The translations under genes and the position numbers were made by a program. 64,000 bases of DNA from an uncultured Bacteroidota bacterium (lineage in GTDB: Bacteria; Bacteroidota; Bacteroidia; Bacteroidales; FEN-979). Of the stretch, positions 4,623-63,859 are shown piece after piece. Where the stretch lies: NCBI GenBank assembly GCA_937900965.1, contig CALCGJ010000031.1, positions 17,341 through 81,340 of the forward strand, given 5' to 3'. The notes below the pieces were generated by a model, which searched no databases, was not told the DNA's origin, and saw only the letters and a program-made list of their open reading frames with translations. The first letter of the stretch is position 1; every line of letters begins with the position of its first letter.

Positions 4623-5381
4623 TTAGATTTGGGTCTTGGGTTTTGGGACTTGGGTCTTGGGACTTGGGACTTGGGACTTGGGACTTGGGACTTGGGGCTT
4701 CAACTTTCCGATGTCTTCCCAAACCGGGCTCGTATCGACAAATCCTTTGATTAGATGATCGGAAGCAAGCCGAATATAAAGATCAGTCAGCGAAAATTTA
4801 CCACTCTCCGTCATCCATGAGAAGATATCCGGATGCAGGATCTGTATCCCGCTGAAAGCAAGGCTCCTGATATCATCACCCTCCCTGCTGATCCGCTGTT
4901 CTCCTGTTTTCCGGTTCTCCCATCCGTACAGTGTATTCTTCTTATCAAAGAGGAAATACCGTGAAGTTTCTCGTTCCCTTACCGCCAGGGTGGCAAGTGG
5001 AGATTCATACCGGTGAAAACGCATCATCTTGTTGAGGTCAAGGTCGGAGAGGATATCCACATTCCGAACCACAAATGGTTCGACATCACGAAAGAACCAG
5101 GATGCTTTTTTCACGCCACCACCAGTCTCCAGCAGCTCATCCGACTCATCAGAGATTGTAATCGTCATTCCGAGATTATCATTTAGCCTGAGGAACTCCA
5201 GTATTTTCTCAGGAAAATGGTGCACATTGATAATCACATCGCGTATCCCATAACGCTTAACGTGTTCCAGTGCATGTTGCAGCAATGGTTTCCCATCAAC
5301 TACTACAAGTGCTTTAGGAATGGAATTGGTGATTGGCCGTAACCGTGTCCCCAATCCCGCTGCAAGTATCATCGCTTTCAT
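4623..5381 (-). CDS. Sugar-1-phosphate nucleotidyltransferase, MurU-like (MurNAc-1-P uridylyltransferase family); C-terminal ~24 aa are repeat-encoded
   Basis: The N-terminus MKAMILAAGLGTRLRPIT is the GxGTRL nucleotidyltransferase signature. The gene lies directly downstream of an APH-type (AmgK-like) kinase. The tail KPQVPSPKSQVPSPKTQVPKPKTQI is the translation of the heptamer array at 4629..4698. Confidence 0.75.
   Translation of the reverse strand: MKAMILAAGLGTRLRPITNSIPKALVVVDGKPLLQHALEHVKRYGIRDVIINVHHFPEKILEFLRLNDNLGMTITISDESDELLETGGGVKKASWFFRDVEPFVVRNVDILSDLDLNKMMRFHRYESPLATLAVRERETSRYFLFDKKNTLYGWENRKTGEQRISREGDDIRSLAFSGIQILHPDIFSWMTESGKFSLTDLYIRLASDHLIKGFVDTSPVWEDIGKLKPQVPSPKSQVPSPKTQVPKPKTQI
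4629..4698. repeat. Heptanucleotide tandem array (TTGGGAC/TTGGGTC) x10
   Basis: Read directly: ttgggtc ttgggtt ttgggac ttgggtc ttgggac x5 ttggggc. A degenerate period-7 continuation (gattgac gattgca ... tttacga tttagat) runs back to about 4594. Confidence 0.95.
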
Positions 5382-5396
5382 ATTCTACGAATTTAA

Positions 5397-5449
5397 CCCC
5401 TAAATCCCGTTTGCTTCAGTACGCCTGAGGCGTACTTCGCAAGGGGACT
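5397..5449 (-). repeat. Split copy of the dispersed 25-nt element (R1) carrying an inserted 19-nt hairpin
   Basis: The halves cccctaaatccc and aaggggact are separated by the hairpin agtacgcc-tg-aggcgtact (5418..5436). The copy lies in the spacer between the kinase-fusion stop and the murU-like start. Confidence 0.8.
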
Positions 5450-5475
5450 ACAAATTCCTTATCCCTTCGACCCTA

Positions 5476-5495
5476 GGACGAGGCATGCCTCGTCC
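5476..5495. repeat. Perfect 20-nt palindrome GGACGAGGCATGCCTCGTCC (hairpin family R2)
   Basis: The sequence is self-complementary. It abuts the stop codon at 5496..5498 and is followed by CTACAAT. Near-identical copies are at 10371 and 60579. Confidence 0.9.
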
Positions 5496-7037
5496 CTACA
5501 ATCGGGCAAGGTTTGTATGATTTGTGTTAACAATAATCTTATACCGTTTTATCAGGAACTCCTTCATCCTCTCTGCACAATAAACCGACCGGTGTTGTCC
5601 CCCTGTACACCCGAAGTTGACGAACAGATGTTGAAATCCACGCTCCAGATAATTTATTACGCTCTGATCAACAAGAGCTGTGGCGTTGTGAAGGAACAGG
5701 TCAACCTCAGCTTCATTCTTCAGGAAGTCTATTACGGGTTTATCCTTCCCTGTAAGTTGTTTGTACTCGTCATATCTTCCCGGATTAGGAAGGGCACGGC
5801 AGTCAAACACAAAACCCCCTCCGTTTTCTGTCGGATCTGCAGGGATGCCGTTTTTGTAGGAGAAACTCGTAATGGTTAAGGTAAGGGAACTGATGCCGGA
5901 TGCCGGATGCCGGATGCCGGGTTTTCCCCTCCCTTCATGGGGAGGGGTCAGAGGTGGGGTACCACCGGTTTCCAGTATCCGGGATCCAGGATCTGGAACC
6001 GAAGCGAAGCGGAGTTCGGCGGAGCCAATCAGCTGGTCCAGCAAGCGGAATAGCGTTGGAAGTTCCACACCGAACTCCTTTTTCTCCCACAGAGTTCGCA
6101 GATTCTTCAGGTTATTCAAGGCATATGGTATACTCTGGAGGAAATGACTCTTTTGTTCATAAAACCCACGATAACCGTAGGCTCCTAGCGCCTGGAGAAT
6201 ACGAATCAGGATAAAGCCAGGGAAATAGGTCATAAATTCCATTCTTTTCCCCGGGATATACACTTCCAGTTCATCCAGATAGAATCCAAGAAGATGATCC
6301 CTGACATGCTGAGGCAGGTCGGCTTTGGCATCATACAGCATAGATGCTATGTCATATTGCAGCGGTCCTTTTCTACCTCCCTGATAATCAATATAGTATG
6401 GGTCGTTATTAACCAGCATGATGTTCCTCGACTGAAAATCCCGGTACATAAAATAATCAGCATCAGCCTGAAGCAAGAAGGTCGAAAATGTAGAGAAGTC
6501 CTCCTCCAGGGCCTGTTCATCAAACGGAACATGAGCAAGTTTCAGGAAGTAATATTTGAAGTAGTTCAGATCCCACAGCATCGATTGACTGTCGAATGCA
6601 TGTCGCGGATAACATTTGGCGAAGTCGATCCTTTCCCCACCCCTGATCTGGAATATAGGGAGCCTCTTAAGTACTTGCTCATAAAGATTCAGTATGGCAG
6701 AAGGAAATCCGGATTCCACTTTCTTCTTTGCGACCAGTTCGGAGAATAGTGTCTGATCACCCAGATCCGATAATAAGTAGCAATTTTTCTGCAGATCCTC
6801 TGCTAAGATTTCAGGGACAGGCAGTATAAGGGATTCAAATGTACGGGTGAATGACAGAAAGGCTTCATTCTCTTTCCGGTCGTTGTTGTATACGCCAATT
6901 ACCGTTCCACGCGTTCCGCTAAGTCTGAAATAGAGTCTGTTAGACCCGGAATCCGGAAGCCTGACAATGCCGTCAGCCCTTTCGCCAAACGTTCTTTGAT
7001 ACAGCGCTTTAACCGGTTCTTCGTTGTTCATTTTCAT
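5496..7037 (-). CDS. Two-domain protein: AmgK-like aminoglycoside-phosphotransferase-fold sugar kinase fused to a RapZ C-terminal-like domain
   Basis: The N-terminal ~340 aa look like an APH-type kinase (…YLLSDLGD…, DFQSRNIML, IDYQG). The C-terminal ~130 aa match the RapZ C-terminal domain (LTITSFSYKNGIP, FDCRALPNPGRY, LTGKDKPV, GCTGGQHRSV). The linker is encoded by repeats at 5880..6010. Confidence 0.75.
   Translation of the reverse strand: MKMNNEEPVKALYQRTFGERADGIVRLPDSGSNRLYFRLSGTRGTVIGVYNNDRKENEAFLSFTRTFESLILPVPEILAEDLQKNCYLLSDLGDQTLFSELVAKKKVESGFPSAILNLYEQVLKRLPIFQIRGGERIDFAKCYPRHAFDSQSMLWDLNYFKYYFLKLAHVPFDEQALEEDFSTFSTFLLQADADYFMYRDFQSRNIMLVNNDPYYIDYQGGRKGPLQYDIASMLYDAKADLPQHVRDHLLGFYLDELEVYIPGKRMEFMTYFPGFILIRILQALGAYGYRGFYEQKSHFLQSIPYALNNLKNLRTLWEKKEFGVELPTLFRLLDQLIGSAELRFASVPDPGSRILETGGTPPLTPPHEGRGKPGIRHPASGISSLTLTITSFSYKNGIPADPTENGGGFVFDCRALPNPGRYDEYKQLTGKDKPVIDFLKNEAEVDLFLHNATALVDQSVINYLERGFQHLFVNFGCTGGQHRSVYCAERMKEFLIKRYKIIVNTNHTNLARL
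5892..5919. repeat. Heptanucleotide tandem array (GATGCCG) x4 followed by the hairpin CCCCTCCC-ttcat-GGGAGGGG (5926..5947)
   Basis: Read directly. It lies inside the inter-domain linker of ORF 5496..7037. A further period-7 stretch, atccggg atccagg atctgga, is at about 5976..5996. Confidence 0.9.
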
Positions 7038-7071
7038 GTTTTTTTCATGAGGTTATGAGTCCATTTTATTG

Positions 7072-7096
7072 CCCCTAAATCCCCTGAAGGGGACTT
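7072..7096 (-). repeat. Dispersed 25-nt element R1 (plus strand reads CCCCTAAATCCCCTGAAGGGGACTT)
   Basis: This is the exact reverse complement of the copy at 39170..39194. It overlaps the AddA-like stop codon (7095..7097). A second hairpin, CCCCC-ttta-GGGGG (7100..7113), follows it and is itself translated as …GPLKGE. Confidence 0.9.
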
Positions 7097-10000
7097 ACTC
7101 CCCCTTTAGGGGGCCGGGGTGTGAATAATCCACTACCTCTTCAACGTCAACCTTTCCCCCAACATACACCAATAATTTCCTCACCCGCTGATAGCCCATC
7201 TCCTGAAGAAGCTGGCCGTATCTTTCAATCTGTCTTCGGTGTGATTGCGATCTCTTTCCGGTTTTATAGTCGATTACTGTCACCTCTATTCCATCAAAGA
7301 CTACCCTGTCAGGACGGGATGACTCTCCCTCAGCCTGCAGGATTTCCGGTTCAGTCTTAACCACGACTTCAGCATGAAAATACCTTGCTAGAAGTGGATG
7401 GGATACAACCGTGTCTAACATCTCACGAATAGATGGCTCCTCTTCACGGGATATCATTCCTGAAAGAAGAGCCCTCTTCAAAGCCTCTTCCCGATCCGGG
7501 GCTACCCTGATATCTGCCAGGATTGCGTGAATCCTGCTCCCAAAATCAACTTTTCCTGCAGGATCCTCCATATCCCAGAATTCAGGAGCCCTCTGGCGAA
7601 TTTTTATAGCTTTACGCCAGTCTGACGATGGCATGGATGAGAGTACCCGAATCCCCCCCCGCTTCTTCCGGGATGTTTTTTGCATGGGAGTGAATATTCC
7701 AAACTCATACGTTGATTTAGCCTCTTCCCAAACACCGATTGATTGCAGGTATGCCGAAAAGAAAGCTGGAAGCGATTTCAGCTCCTCCATGTTGGTTGGG
7801 GGCGAAGCAGTTATAATATATAATTGTTCCTGCGGACGGGTCAGAGCGACATAAAGCAAGTTCACCAAATCTAGCATTGATTTGATTTGTTCCTCCCTGA
7901 ACCGGTCAGCATAAACAGTATCCAGCATCTGCTTTTCGACTGGCAAAAAGGCGGATTTAAGTCCTGTCTTGTCTCCAGGGGGCAACTCAACCCACAGATA
8001 ATTCTTATTTGCCTTGAATAGGTTCTCATCTGCAAACGGAAAAATAACAACCGGAAATTCAAGTCCTTTCGCTTTGTGAATTGTCATAATTCTGACAGCA
8101 TCAACTCCTTCGGGTACGACGATAGAGAGTTTCATTTTATGCTGATCCCACCATTCCAGGAAATCGGCAGCGCTATGGGTCTCTTTCTCCACAAATGTTA
8201 TTACGGCATCAAGAAAGAACTGGACATAGGGATCCGCCTCCTGATCCAGACTAAACGTCCGGATCAGCTTTTCACAGAGATCATAAACCGGAAGACTGAG
8301 TAAGGTGTCTTTTTCAAGGTCTAGCCCATTGTTTCTCAGAATCAACATAAGGTTATCTTCCGGGTGAACAGACCGGCCAATTTCAGTTGCCAACATATGA
8401 AAATCCGCTTTCTTCTGTTTGAGTCTTCCGGCATTCATGAGGTAGTTCACAATCGAGGCCTGGATGATGGTATTGGCCGGATCAAACAGGAACCGGATCA
8501 ATTCGGTGATAAACCTTACTTCCGGTGAGTACGACAACAAGAGGGATTCTGATGAGACCACGTCTATCCCACGAAGGATCAGCTCCCTTGCAATTCGTCC
8601 GGCCTGCCTGTTGGTCCTGCATAAAATGGCAATATCCTGGAGTGCATATCCTCCTGTCAGAAGCTTGTTGATTATCTCTTCTGTGCGGTTTATTGTACAT
8701 TCAGCATACGTCAGATCCGGATCCTCCCCGGTGATGACATCCAGACGAATATACCCCCCCTCAGTGAGGGCGGAAGTTTTTTGCTCCAGATCTTTGTAAA
8801 CATCCTGTAAGCCGGGATCCAGGTGCTGAGAAAGCCAACGGAAGAATCGGTTGTTAAAGGTCACGATTTCCGGTGATGACCGGTAGTTAGAGTCAAGATG
8901 ATGTTCGGTAAAATACTGTAAGAAGAGAGTCTCCCGCTGTCGGATCAGTTCATTTTCATCACGGCCGGGAAGGGCCGGCAATGATGTAAACTGCGATACG
9001 TCTCCATTCCTCCATCGGTAAATAGCCTGTTTCCCATCACCAACAACGAGGTTGAAATATCCGCCAGCAAGAGCATTCTCCATAAGCGGGACAAAATTTA
9101 GCCACTGGAGGCGGGATGTATCCTGGAACTCGTCAATCATGAGGTGGTGATACTTCTCACCCAACCGTTCATAAATAAATGGGACAGGTTCGTGCATGAC
9201 GATCCGGGCAATACGGCTGTTGAATTCGGAAATGTGAACCAGGTTATGCTGACGTTTAAATCCCTCAAGTACCCGTCCGATCTCATTCAGGACAGCAAGG
9301 GGATAAATAGTTTTGGTCAATAACTTAGCCAGATGATAGCTTTGTGATTGTGTATTTCGCAACGCTTCAGATTGTTGACAGATCCCGTGCAATTCCGACT
9401 TGATCTCATGTATTGCTGCAATATCAGTTGATGAGGCTTTTGGTCCTGTCCATTTATCCTTTTCCAGTGTGGTAATCACCCGGCTGCCAGGCTCCAGCTT
9501 ATCCATTCTCCCTGTGGCCAGGTATACAAAATACCCAGGGATCCCGGTTTTTCCATAATAGAATGAGCCGTGAGGAATCCCGTTGAGGTCAATCAGCTTC
9601 AGTGCTTTCTCTCCCAGCTCTTTAAACTGTTGTTCAATCCATCGGATCCGGGCATGCAGCTGCTTGCTGATGCTGTTAAAATCATCGAGAGTGAGTGAGG
9701 AAAGTTTTCTCACATGGGTTTCACCCTCTTCATCCATGAGCAGTTTGGCGAAAGAGACCAGTAACCTGTCTATATTCCATCCTTTGTCCTCCTCCATCCT
9801 GGATTCCAGAAAACTGACAAGAAGCCTGGTGAGTTCCTCGTCGGAACCAGCACGCTCCAGCAAGAGGTCCACAGCAGTTGTTAAAAGCTCCTCCGCCTCC
9901 AGCTCCACAGCAAATGAGACCGGCAATCCGAAATCGTGAGCAAAAGCACGGATAATACGATGGGAAAAGCTATCGATGGTTCCTATAGAGAATTCAGAAT

Positions 10001-10313
10001 AGTGATGAAGAATCAGGGATAACGCCTCTCCGGCTCTACGGGACAACTCCACCAGGTCTAACCCGGTCTCCTCAATCAGGCTTAGTTGCATCTGTCCTGA
10101 GGATCCCTCAGGGATGATTTCATGGGTTTGGGAAAGATCGCTCAACGCTTTCATTACCCGATCCTTCATCTCGTTGGCTGCTTTATGAGTGAAGGTGATA
10201 GCCAGAATATGACGGAACCCTTGAGGATGTACCAGTACCATCTTCAAATATTCCTTAACCAGAGAAAATGTTTTTCCTGATCCGGCAGAACTCCTGTAAA
10301 CAGCAAAACTCAT
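7095..10313 (-). CDS. AddA-like UvrD/Rep-family helicase with C-terminal PD-(D/E)XK nuclease domain
   Basis: The Walker A motif is SAGSGKTF. UvrD-type motifs are present (MIDEFQDTS, TIHKAKGLEFPVV). The C-terminal nuclease motif is RPDRVVF…VIDYKTGK. Confidence 0.85.
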   Translation of the reverse strand: MSFAVYRSSAGSGKTFSLVKEYLKMVLVHPQGFRHILAITFTHKAANEMKDRVMKALSDLSQTHEIIPEGSSGQMQLSLIEETGLDLVELSRRAGEALSLILHHYSEFSIGTIDSFSHRIIRAFAHDFGLPVSFAVELEAEELLTTAVDLLLERAGSDEELTRLLVSFLESRMEEDKGWNIDRLLVSFAKLLMDEEGETHVRKLSSLTLDDFNSISKQLHARIRWIEQQFKELGEKALKLIDLNGIPHGSFYYGKTGIPGYFVYLATGRMDKLEPGSRVITTLEKDKWTGPKASSTDIAAIHEIKSELHGICQQSEALRNTQSQSYHLAKLLTKTIYPLAVLNEIGRVLEGFKRQHNLVHISEFNSRIARIVMHEPVPFIYERLGEKYHHLMIDEFQDTSRLQWLNFVPLMENALAGGYFNLVVGDGKQAIYRWRNGDVSQFTSLPALPGRDENELIRQRETLFLQYFTEHHLDSNYRSSPEIVTFNNRFFRWLSQHLDPGLQDVYKDLEQKTSALTEGGYIRLDVITGEDPDLTYAECTINRTEEIINKLLTGGYALQDIAILCRTNRQAGRIARELILRGIDVVSSESLLLSYSPEVRFITELIRFLFDPANTIIQASIVNYLMNAGRLKQKKADFHMLATEIGRSVHPEDNLMLILRNNGLDLEKDTLLSLPVYDLCEKLIRTFSLDQEADPYVQFFLDAVITFVEKETHSAADFLEWWDQHKMKLSIVVPEGVDAVRIMTIHKAKGLEFPVVIFPFADENLFKANKNYLWVELPPGDKTGLKSAFLPVEKQMLDTVYADRFREEQIKSMLDLVNLLYVALTRPQEQLYIITASPPTNMEELKSLPAFFSAYLQSIGVWEEAKSTYEFGIFTPMQKTSRKKRGGIRVLSSMPSSDWRKAIKIRQRAPEFWDMEDPAGKVDFGSRIHAILADIRVAPDREEALKRALLSGMISREEEPSIREMLDTVVSHPLLARYFHAEVVVKTEPEILQAEGESSRPDRVVFDGIEVTVIDYKTGKRSQSHRRQIERYGQLLQEMGYQRVRKLLVYVGGKVDVEEVVDYSHPGPLKGE

Positions 10314-10370
10314 TTCGATTTACGAATTATTTCAGGATTCCTCCATCCCTTCATCCCTTCATGCCCGTTT

Positions 10371-10390
10371 GGACAAGGCATGCCTCGTCC
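10371..10390. repeat. R2 palindrome copy GGACAAGGCATGCCTCGTCC (one mismatch)
   Basis: Read directly. It is the first of three consecutive hairpins in the 159-nt spacer between the T9SS-cargo stop (10473) and the AddA-like start (10313). Confidence 0.85.
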
Positions 10391-10399
10391 CTTTTTGCC

Positions 10400-10419
10400 A
10401 GCCGCAATAAATTGCGGCT
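10400..10419. repeat. Hairpin AGCCGCAAT-aa-ATTGCGGCT (family R3), followed by CTACAATC
   Basis: Read directly. An identical 20-mer recurs at 25468..25487. Confidence 0.9.
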
Positions 10420-10448
10420 CTACAATCTATATCAGCGCCATTCTGTAC

Positions 10449-10468
10449 AGCCGCCATTCATGGCGGCT
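10449..10468. repeat. Hairpin AGCCGCCAT-tc-ATGGCGGCT (R3 variant with a different stem sequence)
   Basis: Read directly. It has the same architecture as R3, with compensated stem changes. Confidence 0.85.
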
Positions 10469-10472
10469 CACA

Positions 10473-11762
10473 TTATTTTATCAATATCACTTTCCCATGA
10501 TATAGCTTATCTTCCGTTACCAACCGGATCAAATACATTCCTGCCGGAAAAGATGAAAGGTCCATTTCAAGGAATATTGCTGTGTTTTTCAGCTCCCTTC
10601 TCAAAATCTCTTTTCCGCTCCAATCAGATACTATCACATCACCTGTTTGAAAAATATCCGGAGTAGATATACGGATAGCCCCATTTGACGGATTCGGGAA
10701 TATGTTTAGCAAGTGGGTCTTCTGTTCCTCTATCCCAGGGGAGACAACAGTAACCAGCTTCTGGTCTGAAACGAATGTATTCAGGCCATCGATGACAACG
10801 ATTCCAAAAGTGGTTGTGGAATCCATCAACACCGTTAACGACTGGGTTGTATCCAACGTGTTCCAGATAAATCTGTAAGGTGGAGCACCTCCTGAGACTG
10901 CTGCATGGAATGTAACCATGGTACCCTTATCCACAGTTGTATCGGGGCCAAGGGAAACGGAGAGCGGAAGTGAGGGAAGCCGGGTGCTGTCGCGATATGT
11001 CGCCGTAACGATCAAACCTTCGCTGTTCACTTGCAAAACAGGGATCCCCATATGTTCAGCTAACCACTTGTATTCAGTTATGTTTCGGTCTGTGCCGATG
11101 CCAAACCCCATGGACTCGATGAAAATGCTGTCGTGTTGGAATAGGTCACACCGAACCCTGATGGATTCGAATGATCCAAACGGTGTGATAACGGTCCCCC
11201 ATCCATCCACAAAAGAGGTACGAGCTCTCTGGGTTGAGTAATAGAACATTCCGGGAAAATCAATTGCAACCGCAGAAGTTGAAGCCCAGCTTGCATTCGT
11301 ATCCACAGGGAAAGCATAGTATTTATCCGGGGTATTAAATTTGGCAGCAATTGGAACGCCCTGAATCTTAAATGCAAAGCCGTTATCCACAAAGGCTTCG
11401 CCTGAACTTTTAAAAAATGTGAACGATTGCGTAACAGGAAGTCCGGGAAATAACTCGCTGTTTCCCCTTGGACTGGCCAGGTTTGAAACTACGTTAGGGA
11501 TAAAATAGAACCAATATTCGGGGGGTGTGCTTGTCATCATTACGAACGTATCTATTCGCTGGTTCATCGGCTCCAGCATTGAAAAGTTCCATGTTGTATC
11601 ACGTCCGGTCTGGTGGTAGTTTCCCGGGACTGTACTTGTCATGCTCACCCGAAGTGTATCTCCGGCATTCGGCATGTCAGTTTCGTCAATTACTACCTGC
11701 GACCACAGTCCCAAAGGGAGAAGTAACAGGAGAAGGTGGGGAATATGGTTTTGAGCTTTCAT
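10473..11762 (-). CDS. T9SS type-A C-terminal sorting domain protein, function unknown
   Basis: The start ATG at 11762 gives the signal peptide MKAQNHIPHLLLLLLPLGLWSQV. The C-terminus NIFPNPSNGAIRIS…GMYLIRLVTEDKLYHGKVILIK is a Por_Secre_tail-type domain. The longer ORF in the track overlaps tamB and is not supported. Confidence 0.8.
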   Translation of the reverse strand: MKAQNHIPHLLLLLLPLGLWSQVVIDETDMPNAGDTLRVSMTSTVPGNYHQTGRDTTWNFSMLEPMNQRIDTFVMMTSTPPEYWFYFIPNVVSNLASPRGNSELFPGLPVTQSFTFFKSSGEAFVDNGFAFKIQGVPIAAKFNTPDKYYAFPVDTNASWASTSAVAIDFPGMFYYSTQRARTSFVDGWGTVITPFGSFESIRVRCDLFQHDSIFIESMGFGIGTDRNITEYKWLAEHMGIPVLQVNSEGLIVTATYRDSTRLPSLPLSVSLGPDTTVDKGTMVTFHAAVSGGAPPYRFIWNTLDTTQSLTVLMDSTTTFGIVVIDGLNTFVSDQKLVTVVSPGIEEQKTHLLNIFPNPSNGAIRISTPDIFQTGDVIVSDWSGKEILRRELKNTAIFLEMDLSSFPAGMYLIRLVTEDKLYHGKVILIK

Positions 11763-11763
11763 A

Positions 11764-14700
11764 TCACTCCTTTTTCTTTGTTTTTGATCTGCGAAACAAT
11801 TCTCCCCATTTGTAAAAATCACGCTGAAAAGAGATCCCGACACCTTGTGTGTAAGGGGCGTTATTATTGAGGAGGTCGATGGTATTGGTCCGGTTGAATG
11901 CCCGTATTCTCCATCTCCTGTTCTTGGTAAGGAGGTATTCAACATTGATATCACCTACGATAGTGCTGGCTTGAGCAGAAGTAGTATTCTTGTAAGATGA
12001 CATACCAAATGTTCCATCTATTAACAACCTGTCATCAAACAGTTGTGTTGAGACAGTCATGTCGATCTCCTGGCCTGCAGTTGAAGATCCTGGCTGATAA
12101 TTGACACCGATGTTCAGATTCTGAGACATCCCCGAGAGCCAACTGTTAATCTGGTTAGTTACAATCGAAAGTGATGCACCGCCTACATCAACTGCTCCAC
12201 CCGAGCCACCTGCGACCGGTTTAAACTGATTCATTACCAGAATGTATAAAACCTGCTGTGTCATCTCCGCAGTATTGCTTGTATCGATAGCATTATAGAC
12301 CATATTTCTCTCACTCTCCTGGGCATATGGTAAGGCTATTCCAAATGACATGATTGGGTTCATCAGCTTTCCGTTGAGGCGTATAATACACTCAACCGGA
12401 ATGCGGCCCTGAATAGTCGATGTCTCAGAACTTAGTCCCGACAGTGGAACTTTTGTCTTGTATATTGCAGATAACGATATATTTGCATCAGTAGGGTCAC
12501 CAGTCCATGAGATAGAACTTCCCTCTTTAATGGCGAAGGGCAACCGAATCAGGTTTTTCATCTGAAAAAGAAATGAGCCCTTGCTGATCGAGTAGCTTCC
12601 ATGAAGGCTGAAAGGGGTGGAAGGGTTCATCCCCATGGAGATGTTCCCGGATCCGTTTGCTTTGATATTTCCAAGTTGACCGGGGAATAATACCTCAACC
12701 TGGGCATCGGGCCTTACGGCAAGGCTAATGGCCAGGGTCAATCCCGTTGAAGAGGCTGGTCTGCTCAGCTTCGTTGCATTCTCAAGAGAATCTCCCCTGG
12801 GTTGCTTGAAAACAATGTAATCCACCTGTCCAACAGCCTGGGTCAGGTTAATCGGTATCGTTACATTGGTGTTCTGGCCAGTGCTGGCATTCGCAGTGAC
12901 AACAATGTAGTCGATAGGACCAACGATTTCAACCGTTCCGCTCGACCTTGCATTCCCGTAGAAGATACTATTCTGGGCATATGTGTTCCTGAAGGCTGAA
13001 AAGTCATCCATTCGGATATTCAGATTCAGGCTTAGATTGCGGAAATAGTTATGATTAAAAGACCCGTTCAGGTAGGCTTTATTTCCCAGGGAGTCGTATA
13101 GAACCATATTGTTAAAGGAAAATTTATCCGGCTCAATGGTGATGATATCGGCAACCGAATAGGGAACATTGAGGTAACTGATATTGAACTCGGTGCGCAT
13201 CAGTCTTAACTCACCCTTTAATGCAGGCTCCTGAAGGGTACCATCAATCCTGATCTCCCCAGATACAAGACCTGTCAGCCTGGACATAAAACCTGAAACA
13301 AACGGTTCAAGCATCTTGAGGTTCAGGTTCTTCAGCTTCAGGTCGAAATCAAAATGCGGATTTGGCGCTGCTGTGTAATAGCTTCCTGTAAGGGAAAACG
13401 GGATACTCTGGCCAATATTTCCGGTATATATTATTTCTGAGACCACATCAAGTTTATCTTCAGCCCTGTTGTAGTTCACCCGAAAAACGGCATCTCCGAG
13501 ATGCTGCCTGTTGAAACTGAAATTGTCAAGCTTCAGATCAGAATAGACTGACAACTCATTATAGACATCTGTGATTTTCAGATCTCCTGACAGGATCCCG
13601 TCGATGTCAATATTGGGATTTGAGAAAAAATAATCCAGTTGAGAGACATTTACCCCATTGAAGGTCAGATCAAGGGTATCCAGAAAATTGCGGGTAAGCC
13701 TCCCATTCAGTGATAACCACTGGTTGCCGCTCATAAAGGTAAGATCGTGAATTACGATCATGGAGGTATCCAGGATCACATAATTATCTTTCGAAATAGT
13801 CCATGGATTACCGGCCAGTTGTAAGTCAAGTTCATCCAGTTTAATTTTCACGCTCCCATCTTCCAGAAAAGTCAGGAATCCTTCAAAAAAGCTGTAGTCT
13901 TCTTCTGAAGCTGAGCTTACCTTGTAAAGGATACTGTCATGACGGGCGCTGGCAGTTAATAAGAGTGTGTCAAGTTGAATATAAACCGTATCTGTTGGTT
14001 TCGACTTATTCATGATCAGCCTGTCACAACCCGTCTGCACGGAGAGATCATCGCTGCGGGTTTCGGCATCAATGGACCAATTTTCCAGCTGCATTTCTCT
14101 GATATGCAGCAAAGGTGACCGACCCGTTAGTGTAAGTATCTTGTCAGCTTCATTATAATTGCCTTTCAGGTATGATTCCGGGGCGATTTCCAGGAATGGG
14201 AGAAAAATGGCTGTAACTTCAGCCGTATTCCTGAACGTTATCTGGTAGTTCAGCTCCTGTCCTGAATAATGGTATTTCATAGTTGAATCCTGTCGCATCT
14301 GAAAGCTGGCCAGGTAATTCCGGATGAAGGTAACTACTGATGGCACAAGTTTACTGAAGGCAAACTCACCGGTAAAATCAGCATCCAGCAGATCAGACCT
14401 CACTTCATAGGTTTTCTGTCCTGACGAGTCAGCGTTTGTCATGATAAGCAGGGAATCAATGAATGCCCTGTTTCTCCCTTCCCAGTATGAGATATTCCGC
14501 AGATCGATTGTCCCGACAATATTATCAATTGAATTTCCTTTGAAGTCGGCCTGCACTGAAGCTGAGAAGATCTCTACCGAGTCTCGTTCTAGTAGATGCA
14601 GGTTGAACAGCTGTGCATGGTCGACCCGTGAGTCGAATTTAAAAACTGCCAGGCTGTCGTTAAAATCGGCCATTCCGTGAAATGTGAGCTGCAAATCGGA

Positions 14701-16317: not shown

Positions 16318-17302
16318 TGTACGGTCGAACGTTACTGCCAACCAGGAGATCCACAAGGAGTTCGGGGGTGTGGTCCCTGAGCTGGCATCCCGTGCTCATC
16401 AGCAAAATATAGTACCGGTGATTGAAGCCGCAATCCGGAGAGCAAATATACGTAAAAATCAACTTGCTGCGGTGGCCTTTACACAGGGCCCGGGGCTTCT
16501 TGGCTCGCTTCTCGTTGGATCATCATTTGCTAAAAGCTTTGCCCTCGCGATGGAGATTCCCCTGATCGAAGTTGACCATATGCAGGCGCACATCCTGGCG
16601 CATTTCCTGGAAGATCCGCAGAACCAGCGTCCTCTGCCTTCATTCCCGTTTGTCTGTCTGACAGTTTCCGGTGGCCATACCCAGATTGTATTGGTGCGTG
16701 ACTATTTTGATATGGAGGTGCTTGGTCAAACCATCGATGATGCTGCAGGAGAGGCTTTTGACAAATCAGCAAAGATCCTTGGACTCCCCTACCCCGGAGG
16801 TCCAATAATCGACAAGCTTGCTGCAGGAGGTGACCCCGTACGGTTTTCCTTCTCCCGCCCGAACATCCCGGCACTTGATTACAGCTTCAGCGGACTTAAA
16901 ACTTCAATCCTTTATTTTATCAGGGATGAGCTGAAAAAGGATCCTGCATTCATCGAGGAAAATAAAAGGGATCTCTGTGCATCGATCCAGGCAACAATTG
17001 TTGAGATATTGATGGGGAAGTTGAAGCTTGCAGTCGAAGAGATACGCGATACGCGATATGCGATCCCGGATCACGGATCGCGGATCGTTGATGTGGCAAT
17101 CGCCGGTGGCGTATCGGCAAACTCTGCCTTAAGGAAGGCACTGCTGGAGACCGCAGACAAGGAGGGCTGGAATGCCTTTATACCGCAGTTTGAGTACACA
17201 ACAGATAATGCAGCGATGATTGCTGTTGCAGGGTATTTCAAATTCCTGAAGGGCGATTTCACGAAGCAGTCTGCAATATCCTATGCCCGAAGCAGATGGT
17301 GA
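16247..17302 (+). CDS. tsaD: tRNA N6-adenosine threonylcarbamoyltransferase TsaD, with an in-frame repeat-derived insertion
   Basis: The N-terminus is MPPFILGIETSCDDT. Other family motifs are VDHMQAHI, LTVSGGHTQ, GEAFDK and AIAGGVSAN. The insertion IRDTRYAIPDHGSRI is encoded by the heptamers at 17041..17089. Confidence 0.92.
   Translation: MPPFILGIETSCDDTSASVVEGTIVRSNVTANQEIHKEFGGVVPELASRAHQQNIVPVIEAAIRRANIRKNQLAAVAFTQGPGLLGSLLVGSSFAKSFALAMEIPLIEVDHMQAHILAHFLEDPQNQRPLPSFPFVCLTVSGGHTQIVLVRDYFDMEVLGQTIDDAAGEAFDKSAKILGLPYPGGPIIDKLAAGGDPVRFSFSRPNIPALDYSFSGLKTSILYFIRDELKKDPAFIEENKRDLCASIQATIVEILMGKLKLAVEEIRDTRYAIPDHGSRIVDVAIAGGVSANSALRKALLETADKEGWNAFIPQFEYTTDNAAMIAVAGYFKFLKGDFTKQSAISYARSRW
17041..17089. 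repeat. Heptanucleotide tandem array (GATACGC GATACGC GATATGC GATCCCG GATCACG GATCGCG GATCGTT) inside tsaD
   Basis: Read directly. The GATCRCG unit is the same one found in the intergenic arrays at 25499..25526 and 25582..25616. Confidence 0.9.
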
Positions 17303-17958
17303 ACTTTATAGAGATCCCTACCGAACAAACTACCGCAGCTACGGATGTTGTTTTGGCACTGGTTGCTCTTGTTGTCTGCGTTCTTACCTTCAAGGCTGGT
17401 AAGCAATTCAATCCGAAAAAAGGTAAGATCTGGACATGGGCATTTGGTTTGCTGGCGTTTGCTGCGTTGACCGGTGCCATCGCTCATGGTTTTCAGATGT
17501 CACACCAGCTGAATTACATTCTCTGGCAGCCTCTGAACCTGGCACTGGGCCTTGCCATCTCAATGTTTGTTGTAGGTGTTACCTTTGACATGACAAAGGG
17601 AGATCTTCCAAAATTTGTCCTTCCTGTTTTGATAGTAACAGGCACCCTGTTTTATCTCGTCACCTTAATAATTCCAGGATCTTTCCTGGTGTTCATTCTA
17701 TATGAAGCAATCGCTATGTTATTTTCTCTTGTGGTCTATATCATCCTGGGATTCAGAAATCAAATTCGGGGTGCCTGGTTCATGGCCCTGGGGATTCTCA
17801 TCACAATAATTGCTGCAGCCATCCAGGCTTCTGAATCAATATCCTTCACATCTATCTGGAAATTCGATCACAACGGCATCTTCCATATCATACAAATTAT
17901 TGGTTTGTTGGTTCTCTATTGGGGTCTTCGTGCAGACCTTAAAAAAAAGAGCTCTTAA
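17296..17958 (+). CDS. Integral membrane protein with about seven TM helices, function unknown
   Basis: Its ATG overlaps the tsaD stop (ATGGTGA). I count seven hydrophobic segments. Conserved-looking His residues occur at AHGF and in FDHNGIFH. Confidence 0.6.
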   Translation: MVNFIEIPTEQTTAATDVVLALVALVVCVLTFKAGKQFNPKKGKIWTWAFGLLAFAALTGAIAHGFQMSHQLNYILWQPLNLALGLAISMFVVGVTFDMTKGDLPKFVLPVLIVTGTLFYLVTLIIPGSFLVFILYEAIAMLFSLVVYIILGFRNQIRGAWFMALGILITIIAAAIQASESISFTSIWKFDHNGIFHIIQIIGLLVLYWGLRADLKKKSS

Positions 17959-17993
17959 ATGGAACCGATAAAACTGGTTTGAAAAAAGAAATC

Positions 17994-55710: not shown

Positions 55711-55722
55711 TACCCCTTCCTG

Positions 55723-55810
55723 CCCCTAAATCCCCTAAAGGGGACTTGCTCCGCTTCGCGGGTCTATCCTCCCGAAGGGAGGGGTAAGTCCCCTTCAGGG
55801 GATTTAGGGG
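55723..55810. repeat. Inverted pair of R1 elements (55723..55747 and 55786..55810) flanking the hairpin CCTCCC-gaa-GGGAGG; probable bidirectional terminator between convergent genes
   Basis: cccctaaatcccctaaaggggactt … aagtccccttcaggggatttagggg. A further hairpin, GGGGTTTT-caaca-AAAACCCC, is at 55807..55827. The right half lies inside the 3' end of the pepE ORF. Confidence 0.85.
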
Positions 55811-56546
55811 TTTTCAACAAAAACCCCAGATCATCCCTTGCATTCACTTCCCGGGTCTCTTCTCCGTATTTAAATATCCGTAAAGGACGTTCTCCTATCA
55901 GTTCCATGTTATCATCAGTAACTTTCAGCAAACAGCCTTCACGCAATCCGGCAACATAGATGTCCCTGTTCACCGTGAGGAACTCAAGAATCCGTTGCTC
56001 CCTGGTCTCACCGGCATGACCGGCAGGATTTGCATCAAGATAATGTGGATTGATCTGAAAAGGGATCAGGTTCAAACAGTTAAATGAAGGAGGTTCACTG
56101 ATCGGCATGTCGTTGGTCGTCTTCATGGTAGGACAGGCAACATTCGAACCAGCACTCCATCCGGCATAGGGAATCCCCTGCAGAACCCGCTCACGGATAG
56201 CATCCATCGCTCCTGTGGCCTGCATCATCATAACAAGGTGAAAGGTATTTCCCCCTCCCACGGCAATCGCTTCAGCATTCATTACTGCAGCAATAGGATC
56301 AGACTCCCGGTGAATGGAATGAATACCAAGGCCAAGGTCATTGAATACACCAGCAACCCTCTTTTCATATATATCAAAGGAATCCGCTACACTGTCGGGA
56401 GCCAGGTTAACCCCGGCATAGGGGACGAAAAGAATATTTTTTACGCCATATCCCTGATAAAAGGATTTCAGGTGTTGTCGGGGCCAGGCGAGATAGTCCT
56501 CGCCAGCATTGGTTGAATTGCTTATCAGCAATAGGTTTCTGTTCAT
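55764..56546 (-). CDS. pepE: Dipeptidase E (peptidase S51) with a ~16-aa repeat-encoded C-terminal tail
   Basis: It has LLLISNSTNAG, GGNTFHL and the nucleophile motif GWSAGSNV. The tail KTPKSPEGDLPLPSGG is the translation of the R1/hairpin repeats. Confidence 0.85.
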   Translation of the reverse strand: MNRNLLLISNSTNAGEDYLAWPRQHLKSFYQGYGVKNILFVPYAGVNLAPDSVADSFDIYEKRVAGVFNDLGLGIHSIHRESDPIAAVMNAEAIAVGGGNTFHLVMMMQATGAMDAIRERVLQGIPYAGWSAGSNVACPTMKTTNDMPISEPPSFNCLNLIPFQINPHYLDANPAGHAGETREQRILEFLTVNRDIYVAGLREGCLLKVTDDNMELIGERPLRIFKYGEETREVNARDDLGFLLKTPKSPEGDLPLPSGG

Positions 56547-60546: not shown

Positions 60547-60579
60547 GGTTGAGGGTCAAAGGTCAAGGGTCAAGGTAGA
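60545..60579. repeat. Heptanucleotide array AGGGTTG AGGGTCA AAGGTCA AGGGTCA AGGTAGA
   Basis: Read directly. It starts within the MFP stop codon. The same unit occurs at 63797..63831. Confidence 0.9.
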
Positions 60580-60598: not shown

Positions 60599-60638
60599 TA
60601 GGGAAGAAGAATAAATAGCGCCGAGCTCAGGGCACAGG

Positions 60639-60661
60639 AAGTCCCCTTTAGGATTTAGGGG
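60639..60661 (+). repeat. Degenerate R1 element AAGTCCCCTTTAGG-ATTTAGGGG
   Basis: It has 23 of the 25 positions of R1 (a 2-nt deletion and one substitution), in the same orientation relative to the downstream gene as the other intra-operon copies. Confidence 0.8.
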
Positions 60662-60662
60662 T

Positions 60663-60697
60663 GAATTCGTAAATCGTAAATCGAAATTTGAAATATG
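60663..60697 (+). repeat. Heptanucleotide leader array GAATTCG TAAATCG TAAATCG AAATTTG AAATATG ending in the permease start codon
   Basis: Read directly. The related word ATTCGTAAATCGAAATG directly precedes the AddA-like start (minus strand, 10311..10330). Confidence 0.85.
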
Positions 60698-63600
60698 CTA
60701 CAACAATTTATACAACGCCCGATTCTCTCTTTCGTAATAGCCATTCTGATCACCCTGGTAGGTGTGCTGAGCCTGATGGTCCTTCCTGTCGCACAATATC
60801 CTGATGTTGTTCCGCCTACGGTCCAGGTAACGGCTTATTACCCTGGCGCCAGCGCTGAGGTGGTGCAAAAGACTGTTGCAGTCCCTCTGGAGGAACAGAT
60901 CAACGGTGTGGAGAACATGATGTACATGACTTCCCAATGTGCCAACGACGGATCCTGTAACATCACCGTCTATTTCGAAGTGGGGACAGATCCTGATATG
61001 GCAACGGTTAACACCCAGAATCGTGCACAACGTGCGTTTAGTGTACTGCCTGCTGCAGTTACACAGGGAGGGGTGATCGTTATGAAACGAAATCCGAGTA
61101 TCCTTATGCTCTATGCACTTACTTCGACGGATACTTCGTACAATTTTGAATTTCTGTCCAACTATGCCCAGATCAATATTGTCAATACGATGAAGCGTAT
61201 TGAGGGTGTAGGGGATGTATCTCTGCTCGGGGGTGACGACTATGCCATGCGCATCTGGCTCAACCCCGACCGGATGGCCGGTCTCAGTATCACTACCGAT
61301 GATGTAGCCAGCGCTATAATGGATCAGAACCTGGAAGCAGCTGCCGGGGCTATCGGCAAAAATCCAGCTATCCCCGGACAGGAACTCGCCTATATCATTC
61401 GGGCTGAAGGCAGGTTACAATCTATTGAGGAGTTTAACAACATCATCATCAAAACAAAAATTGACGGCTCCATCGTGCGGATGGAAGATATTGCCAGGGT
61501 AGAACTTGGGCTGAAAACATACGATGTTCGTACCCGATTCAATCAAAAGCCCTCCCCTTTCATTGCTGTATACCAGTCACCCGGATCCAATGCAACCCAG
61601 ATACGGGCAGATTGTGACGCAATGATGATGAGTCTGGCCAGCCAGTTTCCGCCCGGACTGGAGTATGAGATAGGGCTCGACACGGTTGAATTTGTGGATG
61701 CATCTGTCCATGATGTACTGAAGACACTTCTTGAAGCATTTATACTTGTTTTTCTCGTCGTCTTCATCTTTCTCCAGGATTGGCGGGCAACCCTGATTCC
61801 TGCCGTTACTGTACCTGTCTCCCTGATTGGTGCATTAGCTGCATTCTCGCTTTTCGGCTTTTCGATCAATATGCTTACCCTCTTTGCACTGGTATTGGCT
61901 ATCGGCATCGTGGTGGATGACGCGATTGTGGTCCTTGAGGCGGTGCAGGAGAAGATAGATGAACATGGAATGAGTCCGCTGGAGGCCACCCGAGAGACCA
62001 TGAAAGAGATCGCTCCGGCGATCTTCACCATCACCCTGGTTCTTTCTGCGGTCTTTATCCCAGTATCGTTCCTTGGAGGAACCACCGGGCAAATGTATAA
62101 ACAGTTCGCACTCACCCTCACCTCCTCGATCGTCATATCCGGATTGCTTGCACTTACCTTAAGTCCGGCGATGTGTGTCCTGCTTCTGAAGCCGAAACCT
62201 GAACGAAAAGGGCTGATCGGTAAATTCTTCGATGGATTTGACAGAGGATTCAATTACACGACAAATAAATACATCGCTATTGTAAACAACTTCCTGCATC
62301 ACATCAGCAGACCTCTCATTTTCCTTGGGATAGTCACCATCCTGGTAGTGGTTGTCATGAAGCTCCTGCCAACCGGATTTTTACCTGAAGAAGACCAGGG
62401 GTATTTCTTTGTCAATGTGATCTCTCCTAAAGGGGTCTCGCTACAGATGACCGACCAGGTGATGCATAGTATTGAAAAAATACTTGAAGAGACTCCGGGT
62501 GTTCAGTCCTACTCCTCCGTCCCGGGGTACAGCATCCTTGACGGGACCGTGAGTACCACGAGTGGAGCGGTCTTTGTCAAACTCCTCCCGTGGGATCAGC
62601 GAACGAAAGATTCGTTGCAAGTGGAGTCGATCATCGCCAGGTTACAGACGAAACTTAACCAAATCCCTAACGGAATTTGTATGGCATTCAATGCACCTGC
62701 AATCTCCGGTTTGGGAACCACCGGAGGTCTTGAGTTACAGTTGGAAGACAAGATCGGCGCCGGTCTGGATAAACTGGCAGAGGTTACAACTAATTTTGCA
62801 GTAGCAGCCATGCAGAACAAAACGCTTTCTAATGTATTCACCGGTTTCCGGGTCGATATCCCACAATATTTCCTTACGGTAAATAAAGATAAAGCCAAAA
62901 CGATGGGGGTCCCGGTCAGTGATATCTACGGTGCTCTCCAGGCCCAGTTCGGAAGCCTCTATATCAACGATTACAACCAATTTGGAAAGTCCTACAGGGT
63001 GATTATTCAGGCCGATGCGGTCTACCGGTCCAACCCCGAAGATGTGAACCTGATCTATGTCAGGTCCAGCAGGGGTGACATGGTGCCACTGGGGACACTT
63101 GTCAGCCTTGAACCGATTGAAGGCCCGGATGTGGTGAGGCGGTTCAACCTCTTTAGCTCTTCCAGTTTTACTATTGCACCTGCACCTGGATACTCATCCG
63201 GACAGGCTATCGAAGCTGTTGCAGAGATAGCAAAAACGACTTTGCCTTTCGGATTTGGTTACGAATATTCGGGACTGACACGACAGGAGTTGATTGCAGG
63301 AAACCAGGCCCCGTTTGTTTTTGCACTCTGTTTCGTCTTTGTCTACCTGCTCCTGGCTGCCAAATATGAGAGCTGGTTCCTTCCGATACCCATCCTGCTT
63401 GCAATGCCTTTCGGCATCTTAGGCGCTTTCGGATTGCAGTGGATAAGTGGTTTGCAGAACAACATTTACGCACAAATCGGACTGATCATGCTGATCGGAC
63501 TGGTGGCAAAGAACGCCATTCTCATTATCGAATATGCCAGGCAAAAGCATGAAGAGGGCATGGATCTGATCAAAGCCGCTGAAGTAGCTGCGCGGCTCCG

Positions 63601-63859
63601 TTTCAGGCCTATCCTGATGACCTCTTTCGCTTTCATCCTGGGTGTGGTACCATTGGTTATTGCAGGTGGAGCCGGTGCTGCCAGCAGGCATGCACTCGGA
63701 ACCTCAGTGTTTGGCGGAATGCTGTTGGCCACTATCTGCGGTGTCCTTGTGGTACCTGCTCTCTATGTGGTATTTCAGCGACTTGAGAATTGGATAAAGG
63801 GTAAGGGTCAAGGGTCGAGGGTCGAGGGTCAAGAAAAAAATGGCAATTCATGGCAATAA
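60695..63859 (+). CDS. Efflux RND transporter permease (HAE1/AcrB family) with a ~20-aa repeat-encoded C-terminal tail
   Basis: The N-terminus is FIQRPILSFVIAILITLVG. It is 12-TM and about 1035 aa of AcrB-type sequence (…VVDDAIVVLE…, …GLVAKNAILIIEYA…). The tail KGKGQGSRVEGQEKNGNSWQ is encoded by the heptamers. Confidence 0.92.
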   Translation: MLQQFIQRPILSFVIAILITLVGVLSLMVLPVAQYPDVVPPTVQVTAYYPGASAEVVQKTVAVPLEEQINGVENMMYMTSQCANDGSCNITVYFEVGTDPDMATVNTQNRAQRAFSVLPAAVTQGGVIVMKRNPSILMLYALTSTDTSYNFEFLSNYAQINIVNTMKRIEGVGDVSLLGGDDYAMRIWLNPDRMAGLSITTDDVASAIMDQNLEAAAGAIGKNPAIPGQELAYIIRAEGRLQSIEEFNNIIIKTKIDGSIVRMEDIARVELGLKTYDVRTRFNQKPSPFIAVYQSPGSNATQIRADCDAMMMSLASQFPPGLEYEIGLDTVEFVDASVHDVLKTLLEAFILVFLVVFIFLQDWRATLIPAVTVPVSLIGALAAFSLFGFSINMLTLFALVLAIGIVVDDAIVVLEAVQEKIDEHGMSPLEATRETMKEIAPAIFTITLVLSAVFIPVSFLGGTTGQMYKQFALTLTSSIVISGLLALTLSPAMCVLLLKPKPERKGLIGKFFDGFDRGFNYTTNKYIAIVNNFLHHISRPLIFLGIVTILVVVVMKLLPTGFLPEEDQGYFFVNVISPKGVSLQMTDQVMHSIEKILEETPGVQSYSSVPGYSILDGTVSTTSGAVFVKLLPWDQRTKDSLQVESIIARLQTKLNQIPNGICMAFNAPAISGLGTTGGLELQLEDKIGAGLDKLAEVTTNFAVAAMQNKTLSNVFTGFRVDIPQYFLTVNKDKAKTMGVPVSDIYGALQAQFGSLYINDYNQFGKSYRVIIQADAVYRSNPEDVNLIYVRSSRGDMVPLGTLVSLEPIEGPDVVRRFNLFSSSSFTIAPAPGYSSGQAIEAVAEIAKTTLPFGFGYEYSGLTRQELIAGNQAPFVFALCFVFVYLLLAAKYESWFLPIPILLAMPFGILGAFGLQWISGLQNNIYAQIGLIMLIGLVAKNAILIIEYARQKHEEGMDLIKAAEVAARLRFRPILMTSFAFILGVVPLVIAGGAGAASRHALGTSVFGGMLLATICGVLVVPALYVVFQRLENWIKGKGQGSRVEGQEKNGNSWQ
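63797..63838. repeat. Heptanucleotide array AAGGGTA AGGGTCA AGGGTCG AGGGTCG AGGGTCA AGAAAAA, followed by ~10-nt repeats (ATGGCAATTC-type, 63839..63880)
   Basis: Read directly. Confidence 0.9.

Follow-up and report, generated by a model that had tools for sequence, protein, structure and literature searches.

Tandem repeats and small palindromes fill the intergenic spacers of the DNA stretch studied here, 64,000 nucleotides (nt) of contig CALCGJ010000031.1 (assembly GCA_937900965.1, forward-strand positions 17,341 to 81,340) from an uncultured Bacteroidota bacterium (Bacteroidales; FEN-979), and five unrelated proteins encoded there end in tails read from this repeat DNA. We consider the repeats to be fast-evolving spacer fillers and the tails to be near-neutral overflow into coding sequence, neither targeted to stop codons nor maintained by selection, a reading to which we give a probability of about 0.72. 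The five open reading frames (ORFs) encode a MurU-like protein, an AddA/RecB-like protein, PepE, an RND permease, and an HSL esterase; a previous sequence-only reading had listed them as running into repeats, the esterase only as a possible case, and all five were confirmed to do so where that reading had placed them (Table 1). It had also proposed that the tails are foreign to their protein families and that the working stops lie inside or beyond the repeat DNA, both of which were borne out by orthologue alignments and by the ends of family profiles. Positions below are those of the 64-kb stretch, hereafter the window, and L-numbers denote related or same-species loci retrieved for comparison. 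Syntenic loci of relatives came from scanning genomes with the AmgK-like/RapZ-C protein, from scanning metagenomes with FprA, and from look-ups of PepE homologues; family ends were judged from curated full-length profiles together with orthologue alignments, and arrays were defined by TRF. R1 denotes a short dispersed palindrome (GTCCCCTTCAGGGGATTTAGGGG).

Table 1. Coordinates of repeat-encoded protein ends and of other repeat features in the window.
Feature	Position	Strand	Repeat content and context
MurU-like tail, residues 227-252 (LKPQVPSPKSQVPSPKTQVPKPKTQI), with stop TAA 4623-4625	4623-4703	-	(GTCCCAA)n array, TRF 4629-4700
AddA/RecB-like tail DYSHPGPLKGE, with stop TAA 7095-7097	7095-7130	-	Translated hairpin GGCCCCCTAAAGGGGGAG (7098-7115)
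Esterase run-on EIRKIRKLPQ (10 amino acids), with stop TAG 19435-19437	19435-19467	-	Decayed (ATTAGGAA)n array
PepE tail KTPKSPEGDLPLPSGG, with stop TAG 55764-55766	55764-55814	-	Inverted R1 copy (55781-55810) and hairpin CCCTCCCTTCGGGAGG
RND permease tail GQGSRVEGQEKNGNSWQ, with stop TAA 63857-63859	63806-63859	+	(AAGGGTC)n 63797-63833, then first (ATGGCAATTC)n units
Forward R1 copy and CCGCGAAGCGG hairpin	55721-55763	.	Between convergent PepE and amylase genes
AmgK-like/RapZ-C inter-domain linker	5880-6010	-	In ORF 5496-7037; heptamer arrays and hairpin CCCTCCCCATGAAGGGAGGG, translated in frame
ParC hypervariable linker	22681-22960	-	7-, 14-, 21- and 28-nt arrays, then conserved ...SDEQLELEL
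9-mer array (GATGGCAAT)n	22530-22645	-	TRF; upstream of FprA and overlapping it
10-mer array (ATGGCAATTC)n	63840-63874	+	Holds RND stop 63857-63859 and likely outer-membrane factor (OMF) start ATG 63871-63873
(AGGTGACA)n and (ATTCACGTT)n arrays	34115-34185	+	First unit holds stop TGA of gene 32511-34118
(AGCGCAK/AGCACAG)n array	35503-35576	+	Overlaps stop TAG (35511-35513) of gene 34200-35513
(GGTCAAG)n array	60547-60575	+	Begins right behind stop TAG of RND adaptor (MFP) gene

The ends of the RND permease and the esterase were compared with orthologues at 75-90% protein identity. In the permease (ORF 60695-63859, plus strand, 1054 amino acids [aa]) the profile ends at residue 1029, and the sequence shared with four orthologues stops at ...(E/D)W(I/V/T)K, mostly with G(K/R) after it; the residues KGK, which the sequence-only reading had counted among its 20 tail residues, are thus native, while about 17 of the 20 are non-native and repeat-coded. 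A heptamer array begins at the same codon in all five genomes, the window included, and each genome has a different unit. The stop falls inside the unit in L173 (GAGGTAA then GAGGTGA) and in L177 (GACGTGA), both of which yield proteins of 1041 aa, and in L180 (GGACGAA/GACGTAA) a short repeat-coded tail ends in a GACGTAA unit at 1046 aa; the stop-free units GGGACGA in L175 and AAGGGTC in the window produce, respectively, a 27-aa tail on a protein of 1064 aa and the tail described above. The esterase (ORF 19435-20433, minus strand, 332 aa) similarly runs past the end of the LipP1 model at residue 315, and its five syntenic relatives stop 1-11 residues past ...CC(R/K)AL. Arrays lie at the 3' end of this gene in all six genomes, with units GACGTAA in L093, GGACGTR in L094, GAGACGT and ACGAAAT in L115, GCCAAGA in L158, and ATTAGGAA in L095 and the window, where (GAGGGAA)2 at 19465-19480 precedes it; the stop lies ahead of, within, or past the array depending on the genome. 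The stop TAG of L095 aligns exactly with a GAA codon of the window (19465-19467), so that the ancestral stop is visible at this site. Arrays that occupy the same sites with different units in relatives are long-standing, fast-turning-over residents of the spacers rather than fresh insertions, and the claim that repeats insert right at the 3' ends of genes did not hold. The related claim that repeats remove or replace the native stop stands for the esterase when set against L095, for PepE when set against L174, and for the replaced MurU end; it does not extend to fresh arrivals at the RND and esterase sites, where the orthologues already carry an array.

The MurU-like protein (ORF 4623-5381, minus strand, 252 aa) shows a change of tail within the species. 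Its family homology stops at residue 226 (positions 1-216 of 226 in the NCBIfam MurU model), and the C-terminus of 20 syntenic homologues is either helix-like (GKPExLxxAE...) or, in the nearest relatives, short and unrelated; by these alignments the array evidently replaces the C-terminal ~10-18 residues of the family and is not a mere addition. In L179, an allele from the same species, the array is one GTCCCAA unit shorter than in the window; residues 1-239 are identical and the final 13 residues are frameshifted, such that the tail reads ...KSQVPRPKSQNPRPKSKS in L179 and ...KSQVPSPKTQVPKPKTQI in the window. The L179 protein is still 252 residues long because a second TAA (4616-4618) lies exactly 7 nt downstream of the first. 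In the AddA/RecB-like protein (ORF 7095-10313, minus strand, 1072 aa) profile and homology end at residue ~1052; six relatives (46-78% identical) end 0-4 residues past ...VEVEE(V/I), and the window protein has ~8-11 extra residues. Its stop TAA, in TAAGTCCCCTTCAGGGGATTTAGGGG, opens the R1 copy next to it (7070-7097), and in the relative L014 the ORF stops at the first TGA of (TGAAGAA)n.

PepE (ORF 55764-56546, minus strand, 260 aa) reads into a palindromic composite. Its profile ends at residue 241, nearly all of the best 120 homologues listed are 242-256 aa long, and the 17 that were aligned, one of them 90% identical, mostly end at ...GFLL plus 0-5 residues, with one exception that has an unrelated 16-aa tail. 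L174, the nearest relative with a simple arrangement, ends at ...ANH-TAA with one R1 directly behind. In the window and in L180, this R1 is preceded by a ~65-nt composite of an inverted R1 and two small hairpins; L180 enters this composite in the phase in which CCCC-TAA-ATCC is in frame and ends at 247 aa, while the window enters it one base out of phase and gains 13 further codons. The inverted R1 pair spans 55723-55810, the forward copy being 90% complementary over 30 nt to that at 55781-55810.

Across these comparisons a single rule described the ends. A heptamer array gets read in all three phases, and in every tabulated case a unit with TAA, TAG, or TGA on the sense strand ended the ORF within three units, and a stop-free unit was read through to the end of the array, leaving a tail with 7-residue periodicity. 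The presence of a tail is set by the stop content of the unit and by the phase of entry, and switches were seen by one-unit slippage (MurU, L179), by a 1-nt change of phase (PepE, L180), and by TAG in place of GAA (esterase, L095). Predicted tail peptides include those ending in ...WEDIGKLKPQVPSPK and ...GFLLKTPKSPEGDLPLPSGG. Repeat DNA occupies the spacer to the very edge of the upstream gene's constrained codons, and it is kept at orthologous sites across species while its units turn over. Slippage of a unit, a 1-nt change in the phase of entry, or a substitution in a stop triplet moves the first in-frame stop, by which a tail is gained, lost, or frameshifted. On the spacer-filler reading, repeats would fill every tolerated stretch, including spacers, gene ends, disordered linkers, and first codons. 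The tails would be tolerated because they sit on dispensable C-termini, and would be near-neutral by-products.

The extra tails are probably functionless, judging from how they vary. A case for selection can be made in that the K/P/G/E/R-rich peptides might aid solubility or spacing as disordered tails, or might act as localisation signals: all within-species variants have the same length (8 MurU, 4 full-length AddA plus 2 contig-truncated fragments, 2 esterase, and 3 RND), all relatives of ParC keep a long charged repeat linker, and some relatives have tails as well (27 aa on the L175 permease and ~10 aa on the L094 esterase). The equal lengths are, however, explained by stops 7 nt apart and by a near-clonal sampled population (99.9% DNA identity); moreover, tail sequences are unrelated between species, relatives at 90% identity do without any (PepE of 247 versus 260 aa), and a frameshift separates the final 13 residues of two MurU alleles whose proteins are otherwise identical. 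Selection for the tails themselves is thus very improbable.

A similar weighing applies to the idea that mobile repeats, or a process acting at 3' ends or stops such as slippage duplication of the last bases together with the stop, are inserted at these places and replace the native stop. Many units consist of 4 nt plus a stop triplet (GACGTAA, GAGGTAA, GACGTGA, GGACTGA), the stop often falls in the first unit of the array, array starts cluster between -21 and +5 nt from stops (~20 cases at 12 loci), the ~65-nt composite at PepE is a real insertion relative to L174, and R1 with its partner hairpin recurs in other genera (loci L019 and L059 of Draconibacterium metagenome-assembled genomes, or MAGs). 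Stops lay within 6 nt of a tandem array in 7 of 35 cases, which was a significant enrichment against the whole window (P = 2e-6) but not against a null of tolerated space, comprising intergenic DNA and the last 30 codons of each gene (P = 0.11), and 3'-end targeting was dropped on this account; short spacers are largely filled by arrays, which forces the arrays near stops. The orthologous sites already hold arrays in all relatives examined, and the tails in the window are therefore not insertion events. Identical arrays are found in internal linkers and at 5' ends too, no terminal inverted repeat was seen, nor was a transposase, none having been looked for in the window, and no target-site duplication stood out by eye at the PepE composite in comparison with L174, where no systematic search was made. 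We regard targeted insertion as unlikely.

The same kinds of arrays are found inside proteins, where they leave native ends intact. ParC, the lead example of a displaced stop in the sequence-only reading, was rejected as such, given that its terminal ...QLELEL motif is conserved, as (S/D)D(E/D)QLELEL in every close relative and as ...QMELPL or ...IQIEF(D/E)F in more distant ones; the repeats form an in-frame internal linker and the stop is native. Across relatives (L093, L095, L115, L158, L096-L099) this linker ranges from ~25 to >100 aa, and in the close ones it is made of arrays with the four periods given in Table 1. Because the conserved end of this essential gene lies behind arrays whose units are not triplets, the arrays must keep frame, and slippage by one unit would remove it; for population variation in the ParC arrays, the same-species contigs reach as far as the 9-mer array, where they end. 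The inter-domain linker of the AmgK-like/RapZ-C protein, with GGATCCN arrays and four copies of CCGGCAT, is 35-40 aa longer than in homologues from Mariniphaga, Maribellus, and Draconibacterium, and expanded linkers also occur in L013, L014, and L026, with different arrays in L013 and L014. A gene fusion made by the repeats was rejected here, since the two-domain protein is conserved in all 80 loci retrieved, mostly from Bacteroidota and allied phyla, and only the linker is expanded.

Start codons are caught up in arrays as well. As the sequence-only reading had pointed out, the candidate start codons of FprA (ATGs at 22548-50, 22545-47, and 22539-41) all lie within the 9-mer array; gene callers disagree on the start (403 versus 405 aa), and the array has 7 perfect ATGATGGCA units in L182 versus 6 in the window. 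The RND stop and the likely OMF start are 11 nt apart within one shared array. A unit family consisting of ATGGCAAT plus 1-2 nt supplies the ATG of unrelated genes, namely FprA in three genomes (window, L093, and L094) and the OMF in the window, the arrays being the 9-mer and 10-mer arrays of Table 1, L093 3980-4019, and L094 ~230-262. An (ATCACGG)n array in the 25583-25723 region overlaps the GTG start region annotated for ParC and is, at a distance of 37 nt, upstream of an opposite-strand tRNA gene (25651-25723); similar units (ATCGCGG and others) recur inside a gene at 17041-17092.

Several observations weigh against purely neutral filling. In a table covering the window and 11 related loci, in which several sites are orthologous and P values are thus optimistic, arrays at 3' ends were strongly polar, 30 of 35 being rich in purines (mean 70%) on the strand that is sense for the gene upstream, and sense-strand stop triplets outnumbered antisense ones (17 versus 5, P = 0.017); such polarity is not obviously expected of a purely neutral filler. 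Unit families recur at unrelated loci and in different genomes, with GACGTAA-like units at stops, ATGGCAAT at starts, and ATTAGGAA in several spacers, which hints at a function or a copying mechanism. We infer the translation of the tails from their reading frame, and the case for their neutrality is built on one frameshifted allele and on non-conservation between species. Polarity, the recurrence of units, and the R1 composite in Draconibacterium are compatible with selection that disfavours long tails, with mutation bias linked to transcription, or with an intercistronic function.

Were the last of these the case, arrays would be kept for an RNA or DNA role between co-directional genes, and tails would be a side effect of a unit losing its stop; the proposed roles are stops in all frames, help with re-initiation (from purine-rich spacers free of structure, or from sites bound by proteins) in a lineage that makes weak use of Shine-Dalgarno sequences, and start-codon arrays. 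Beyond the polarity to the upstream gene, arrays persist at orthologous sites despite complete turnover of the unit, the ATGGCAAT family is tied to the starts of unrelated genes, and the 3'-end arrays of the window all lie between co-directional genes, the convergent PepE/amylase pair having the palindromic R1 instead. A translational role has also been proposed for TAACTGA heptamers beside start codons (MacGregor 2015, PMC4679880). Against such a role, one and the same site has non-conserved units in different species, copy numbers differ within the species, many gene pairs have no array, and the polarity could be due to a mutation bias associated with transcription or to nothing more than selection against long tails. 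An Rfam scan of the whole window returned one tRNA only, with no match for R1 or the arrays, and intrinsic-terminator and sigma-70 promoter scans of positions 1-20000 gave counts at the level of shuffled sequence, which indicates that the hairpins are not canonical terminators. We hold functional intercistronic elements to be a possible explanation, though a tentative one. A more elaborate version, in which a polar intercistronic system is maintained by concerted evolution in this Shine-Dalgarno-poor lineage, with heptamers as all-frame stops, spacers, or binding platforms and the 9- and 10-mers of the ATGGCAAT family supplying or tuning starts, seems doubtful; if true, the tails and the linkers of ParC and AmgK/RapZ-C would be its visible overflow into coding sequence.

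The window has ~46% G+C and ~35 ordinary genes, among them an RND efflux operon and genes for a TamB-like protein, ParC, FprA, SusC/D-type proteins, and proteins with type IX secretion system (T9SS) C-terminal sorting domains. Nearly all spacers longer than ~40 nt are filled by tandem arrays with units of 7, 8, 9, or 10 nt and by small GC-rich palindromes, comprising R1 (4 copies in the window versus 0.01 expected), GGACGAGGCATGCCTCGTCC (3 copies), AGCCGCAATAAATTGCGGCT (2 copies), and hairpins of the CCCTCCCTTCGGGAGG type. TRF found 20 arrays of 5-11-nt units with at least 3 copies, or 23 with at least 2.5 copies, and tandem arrays make up 1.7% of the window. Period 7 was found in 57 of 76 arrays from the window and 15 clade loci, and array density was 2.3 per 10 kb in clade loci versus 0.46 per 10 kb in the remaining fetched loci, a predominance of heptamers that accords with the spacer-filler reading. 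The nearest genomic relatives of the window proteins are uncultured Prolixibacteraceae/Bacteroidales MAGs, and the proteins recur exactly in many aquatic metagenome assemblies, the lineage being freshwater.

Mis-assembly of repeats in the MAG or wrong ORF calls could in principle produce such ends, and short-read contigs do often break at repeats (L011 and L012 begin 27 nt ahead of MurU; L183, L188, and L189 begin inside the 9-mer array), with one spacer differing between assemblies by an 84-nt segment or a run of Ns. Identical proteins of 252, 1072, 332, 260, and 1054 aa nevertheless recur on 8-24 independent contigs, which come from many metagenome samples and from different assemblers; each tail is part of one uninterrupted ORF that offers no other in-frame stop, and independently assembled relatives show the same architecture, all of which makes an artefact barely credible. 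The 84-nt segment is a hairpin block (GGACGAGGCATGCCTCGTCC and others) at 5404-5487, between ORF 5496-7037 and MurU, that is present in the window and absent from L007, L008, and L010; its junction falls in a GGGA direct repeat where L009 has Ns, and the block is either a real presence/absence polymorphism or an assembly collapse.

Some further features of the repeats were recorded. R1 measures ~24-36 nt and its composites ~60-90 nt; it lies mostly 20-60 nt upstream of the ATG of the next gene, in the orientation of that gene (39138-39214, 60620-60694, 5382-5460, 7038-7094), often with a CCCCTCC...GGGGAGG hairpin before it and, at several genes, a TTCGTAAATCGAAAT- or TAATTTGAAAT-like stretch after it. 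The composite of hairpin and R1 also occurs in two Draconibacterium MAG loci (L019 2970-3090, L059 ~12280-12460) and is thus conserved beyond the species. The RND adaptor (MFP) has no tail because its stop precedes the (GGTCAAG)n array. Behind the (AGCGCAK/AGCACAG)n array lies an imperfectly inverted (CCTGWGC)n array, the two forming a 27-nt hairpin with 78% complementarity (35506-35576), and a second pair of array and inverted array (44627-44714; 36 nt, 72% complementary) follows the stop of gene 42234-44615; such pairs would fold into long imperfect hairpins directly behind the stops of genes 34200-35513 and 42234-44615. In the 5' region of a cation-efflux family ORF (18722-19411), a poly-A tract at ~19376-19385 (minus strand) is A10 or A11 among same-species contigs, a difference that leads to two called starts for the gene (229 versus 211 aa).

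The window thus offers a natural example of non-triplet repeats and palindromes reshaping the ends of proteins, in which the stop content of the unit predicts the tail, and in which comparison among orthologues and within the species catches the switch of a tail directly. For the annotation of MAGs from repeat-rich lineages it is a warning that C- and N-terminal residues and linker lengths can be repeat-driven and unstable, and that contigs break at these places. A clade of Bacteroidota with unusually dense and polar heptamer arrays could also be used to probe whether such arrays play any part in operon expression.

Among known systems, the closest in general form are the long simple sequence repeats (LSSRs) of prokaryotes, in which heptanucleotide arrays are, according to a summary of one survey, the commonest class and mostly intergenic, with units inside coding regions mainly multiples of a triplet (Mrazek et al. 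2007, summarised in PMC4679880). The window contains arrays of 5-11-nt units in at least 3 copies (e.g. 4629-4700, 63797-63833, 60552-75, 22738-22841), dominated by heptamers and polymorphic in copy number, as expected of LSSRs, but in contrast to that survey it has non-triplet units inside ORFs as tails and linkers. The cyanobacterial STRR heptamers, reportedly described by Mazel and colleagues in 1990, have the consensus units CCCCAGT, TTGGTCA, and CAACAGT. As with both LSSRs and STRRs, the units here are 5-11 nt long and arranged head to tail, heptamers are commonest, most arrays are intergenic, abundance is lineage-specific, and copy number varies by slippage; unlike them, the host is a Bacteroidota bacterium, with Prolixibacteraceae-like proteins and relatives, the units (GTCCCAA, AAGGGTC, GACGTAA, and others) are unrelated to the STRR consensus, and arrays abut or cross the ends of ORFs.

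TAACTGA heptamers are known from marine Beggiatoaceae, some Cyanobacteria, and five Bacteroidetes (MacGregor 2015, PMC4679880), where they overlap upstream stop codons in 13 cases and place stops in all frames (PMC4679880). The likeness lies in intergenic heptamer arrays beside starts and stops, and some of the Bacteroidetes in that work have long arrays and other heptamers (PMC4679880). The window gave no match to TAACTGATAACTGA with up to 1 mismatch, many units are present here rather than one, and that paper did not centre on stop-free units giving translated tails (PMC4679880). The rule that stop-free repeats become fused and stop-rich ones stay intergenic has a precedent for heptamers in the same work and for palindromic elements fused to ORFs (Rickettsia RPE, Correia, ERIC, and YPAL), among which those with an open frame were found fused and those rich in stops intergenic (PMC2229807).

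In Coxiella, many functional genes have a 3' end that shares 1-50 bp with a QMITE1 or QMITE2 element, and in the Dugway strain an indel joins enhC to a QMITE2 copy, adding 33 C-terminal residues, while RSA 493 stops just before the element (PMC5896051); PepE in the window versus L180 is the same switch. In-frame 3' fusion of this type is seen in the AddA and PepE tails, which are read through R1 or partner hairpins. Unlike MITEs (miniature transposable elements with inverted repeats), which are of ~100-200 bp, R1 and its partners are only ~20-60 nt, no transposon-type terminal inverted repeats were seen, the pair at 55723-55810 being two R1 copies and not the ends of one unit, and 3 of the 5 tails come from tandem arrays. 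The REP and BIME elements of proteobacteria are GC-rich imperfect palindromes of 20-40 nt that lie between genes, often as inverted pairs between convergent or co-directional genes, and are rarely translated. R1 resembles them as a short, GC-rich, dispersed palindrome with an inverted pair at 55723-55810, and differs in phylum and sequence. The repeats of the window fall outside the STRR (by host and units), TAACTGA, and classical MITE (by size) families, fit the broad LSSR class, and would fit a REP-like class, and the repeat-made tails that they leave on ordinary enzymes are a side effect of a type already known from Coxiella QMITEs, Rickettsia RPEs, and TAACTGA heptamers.

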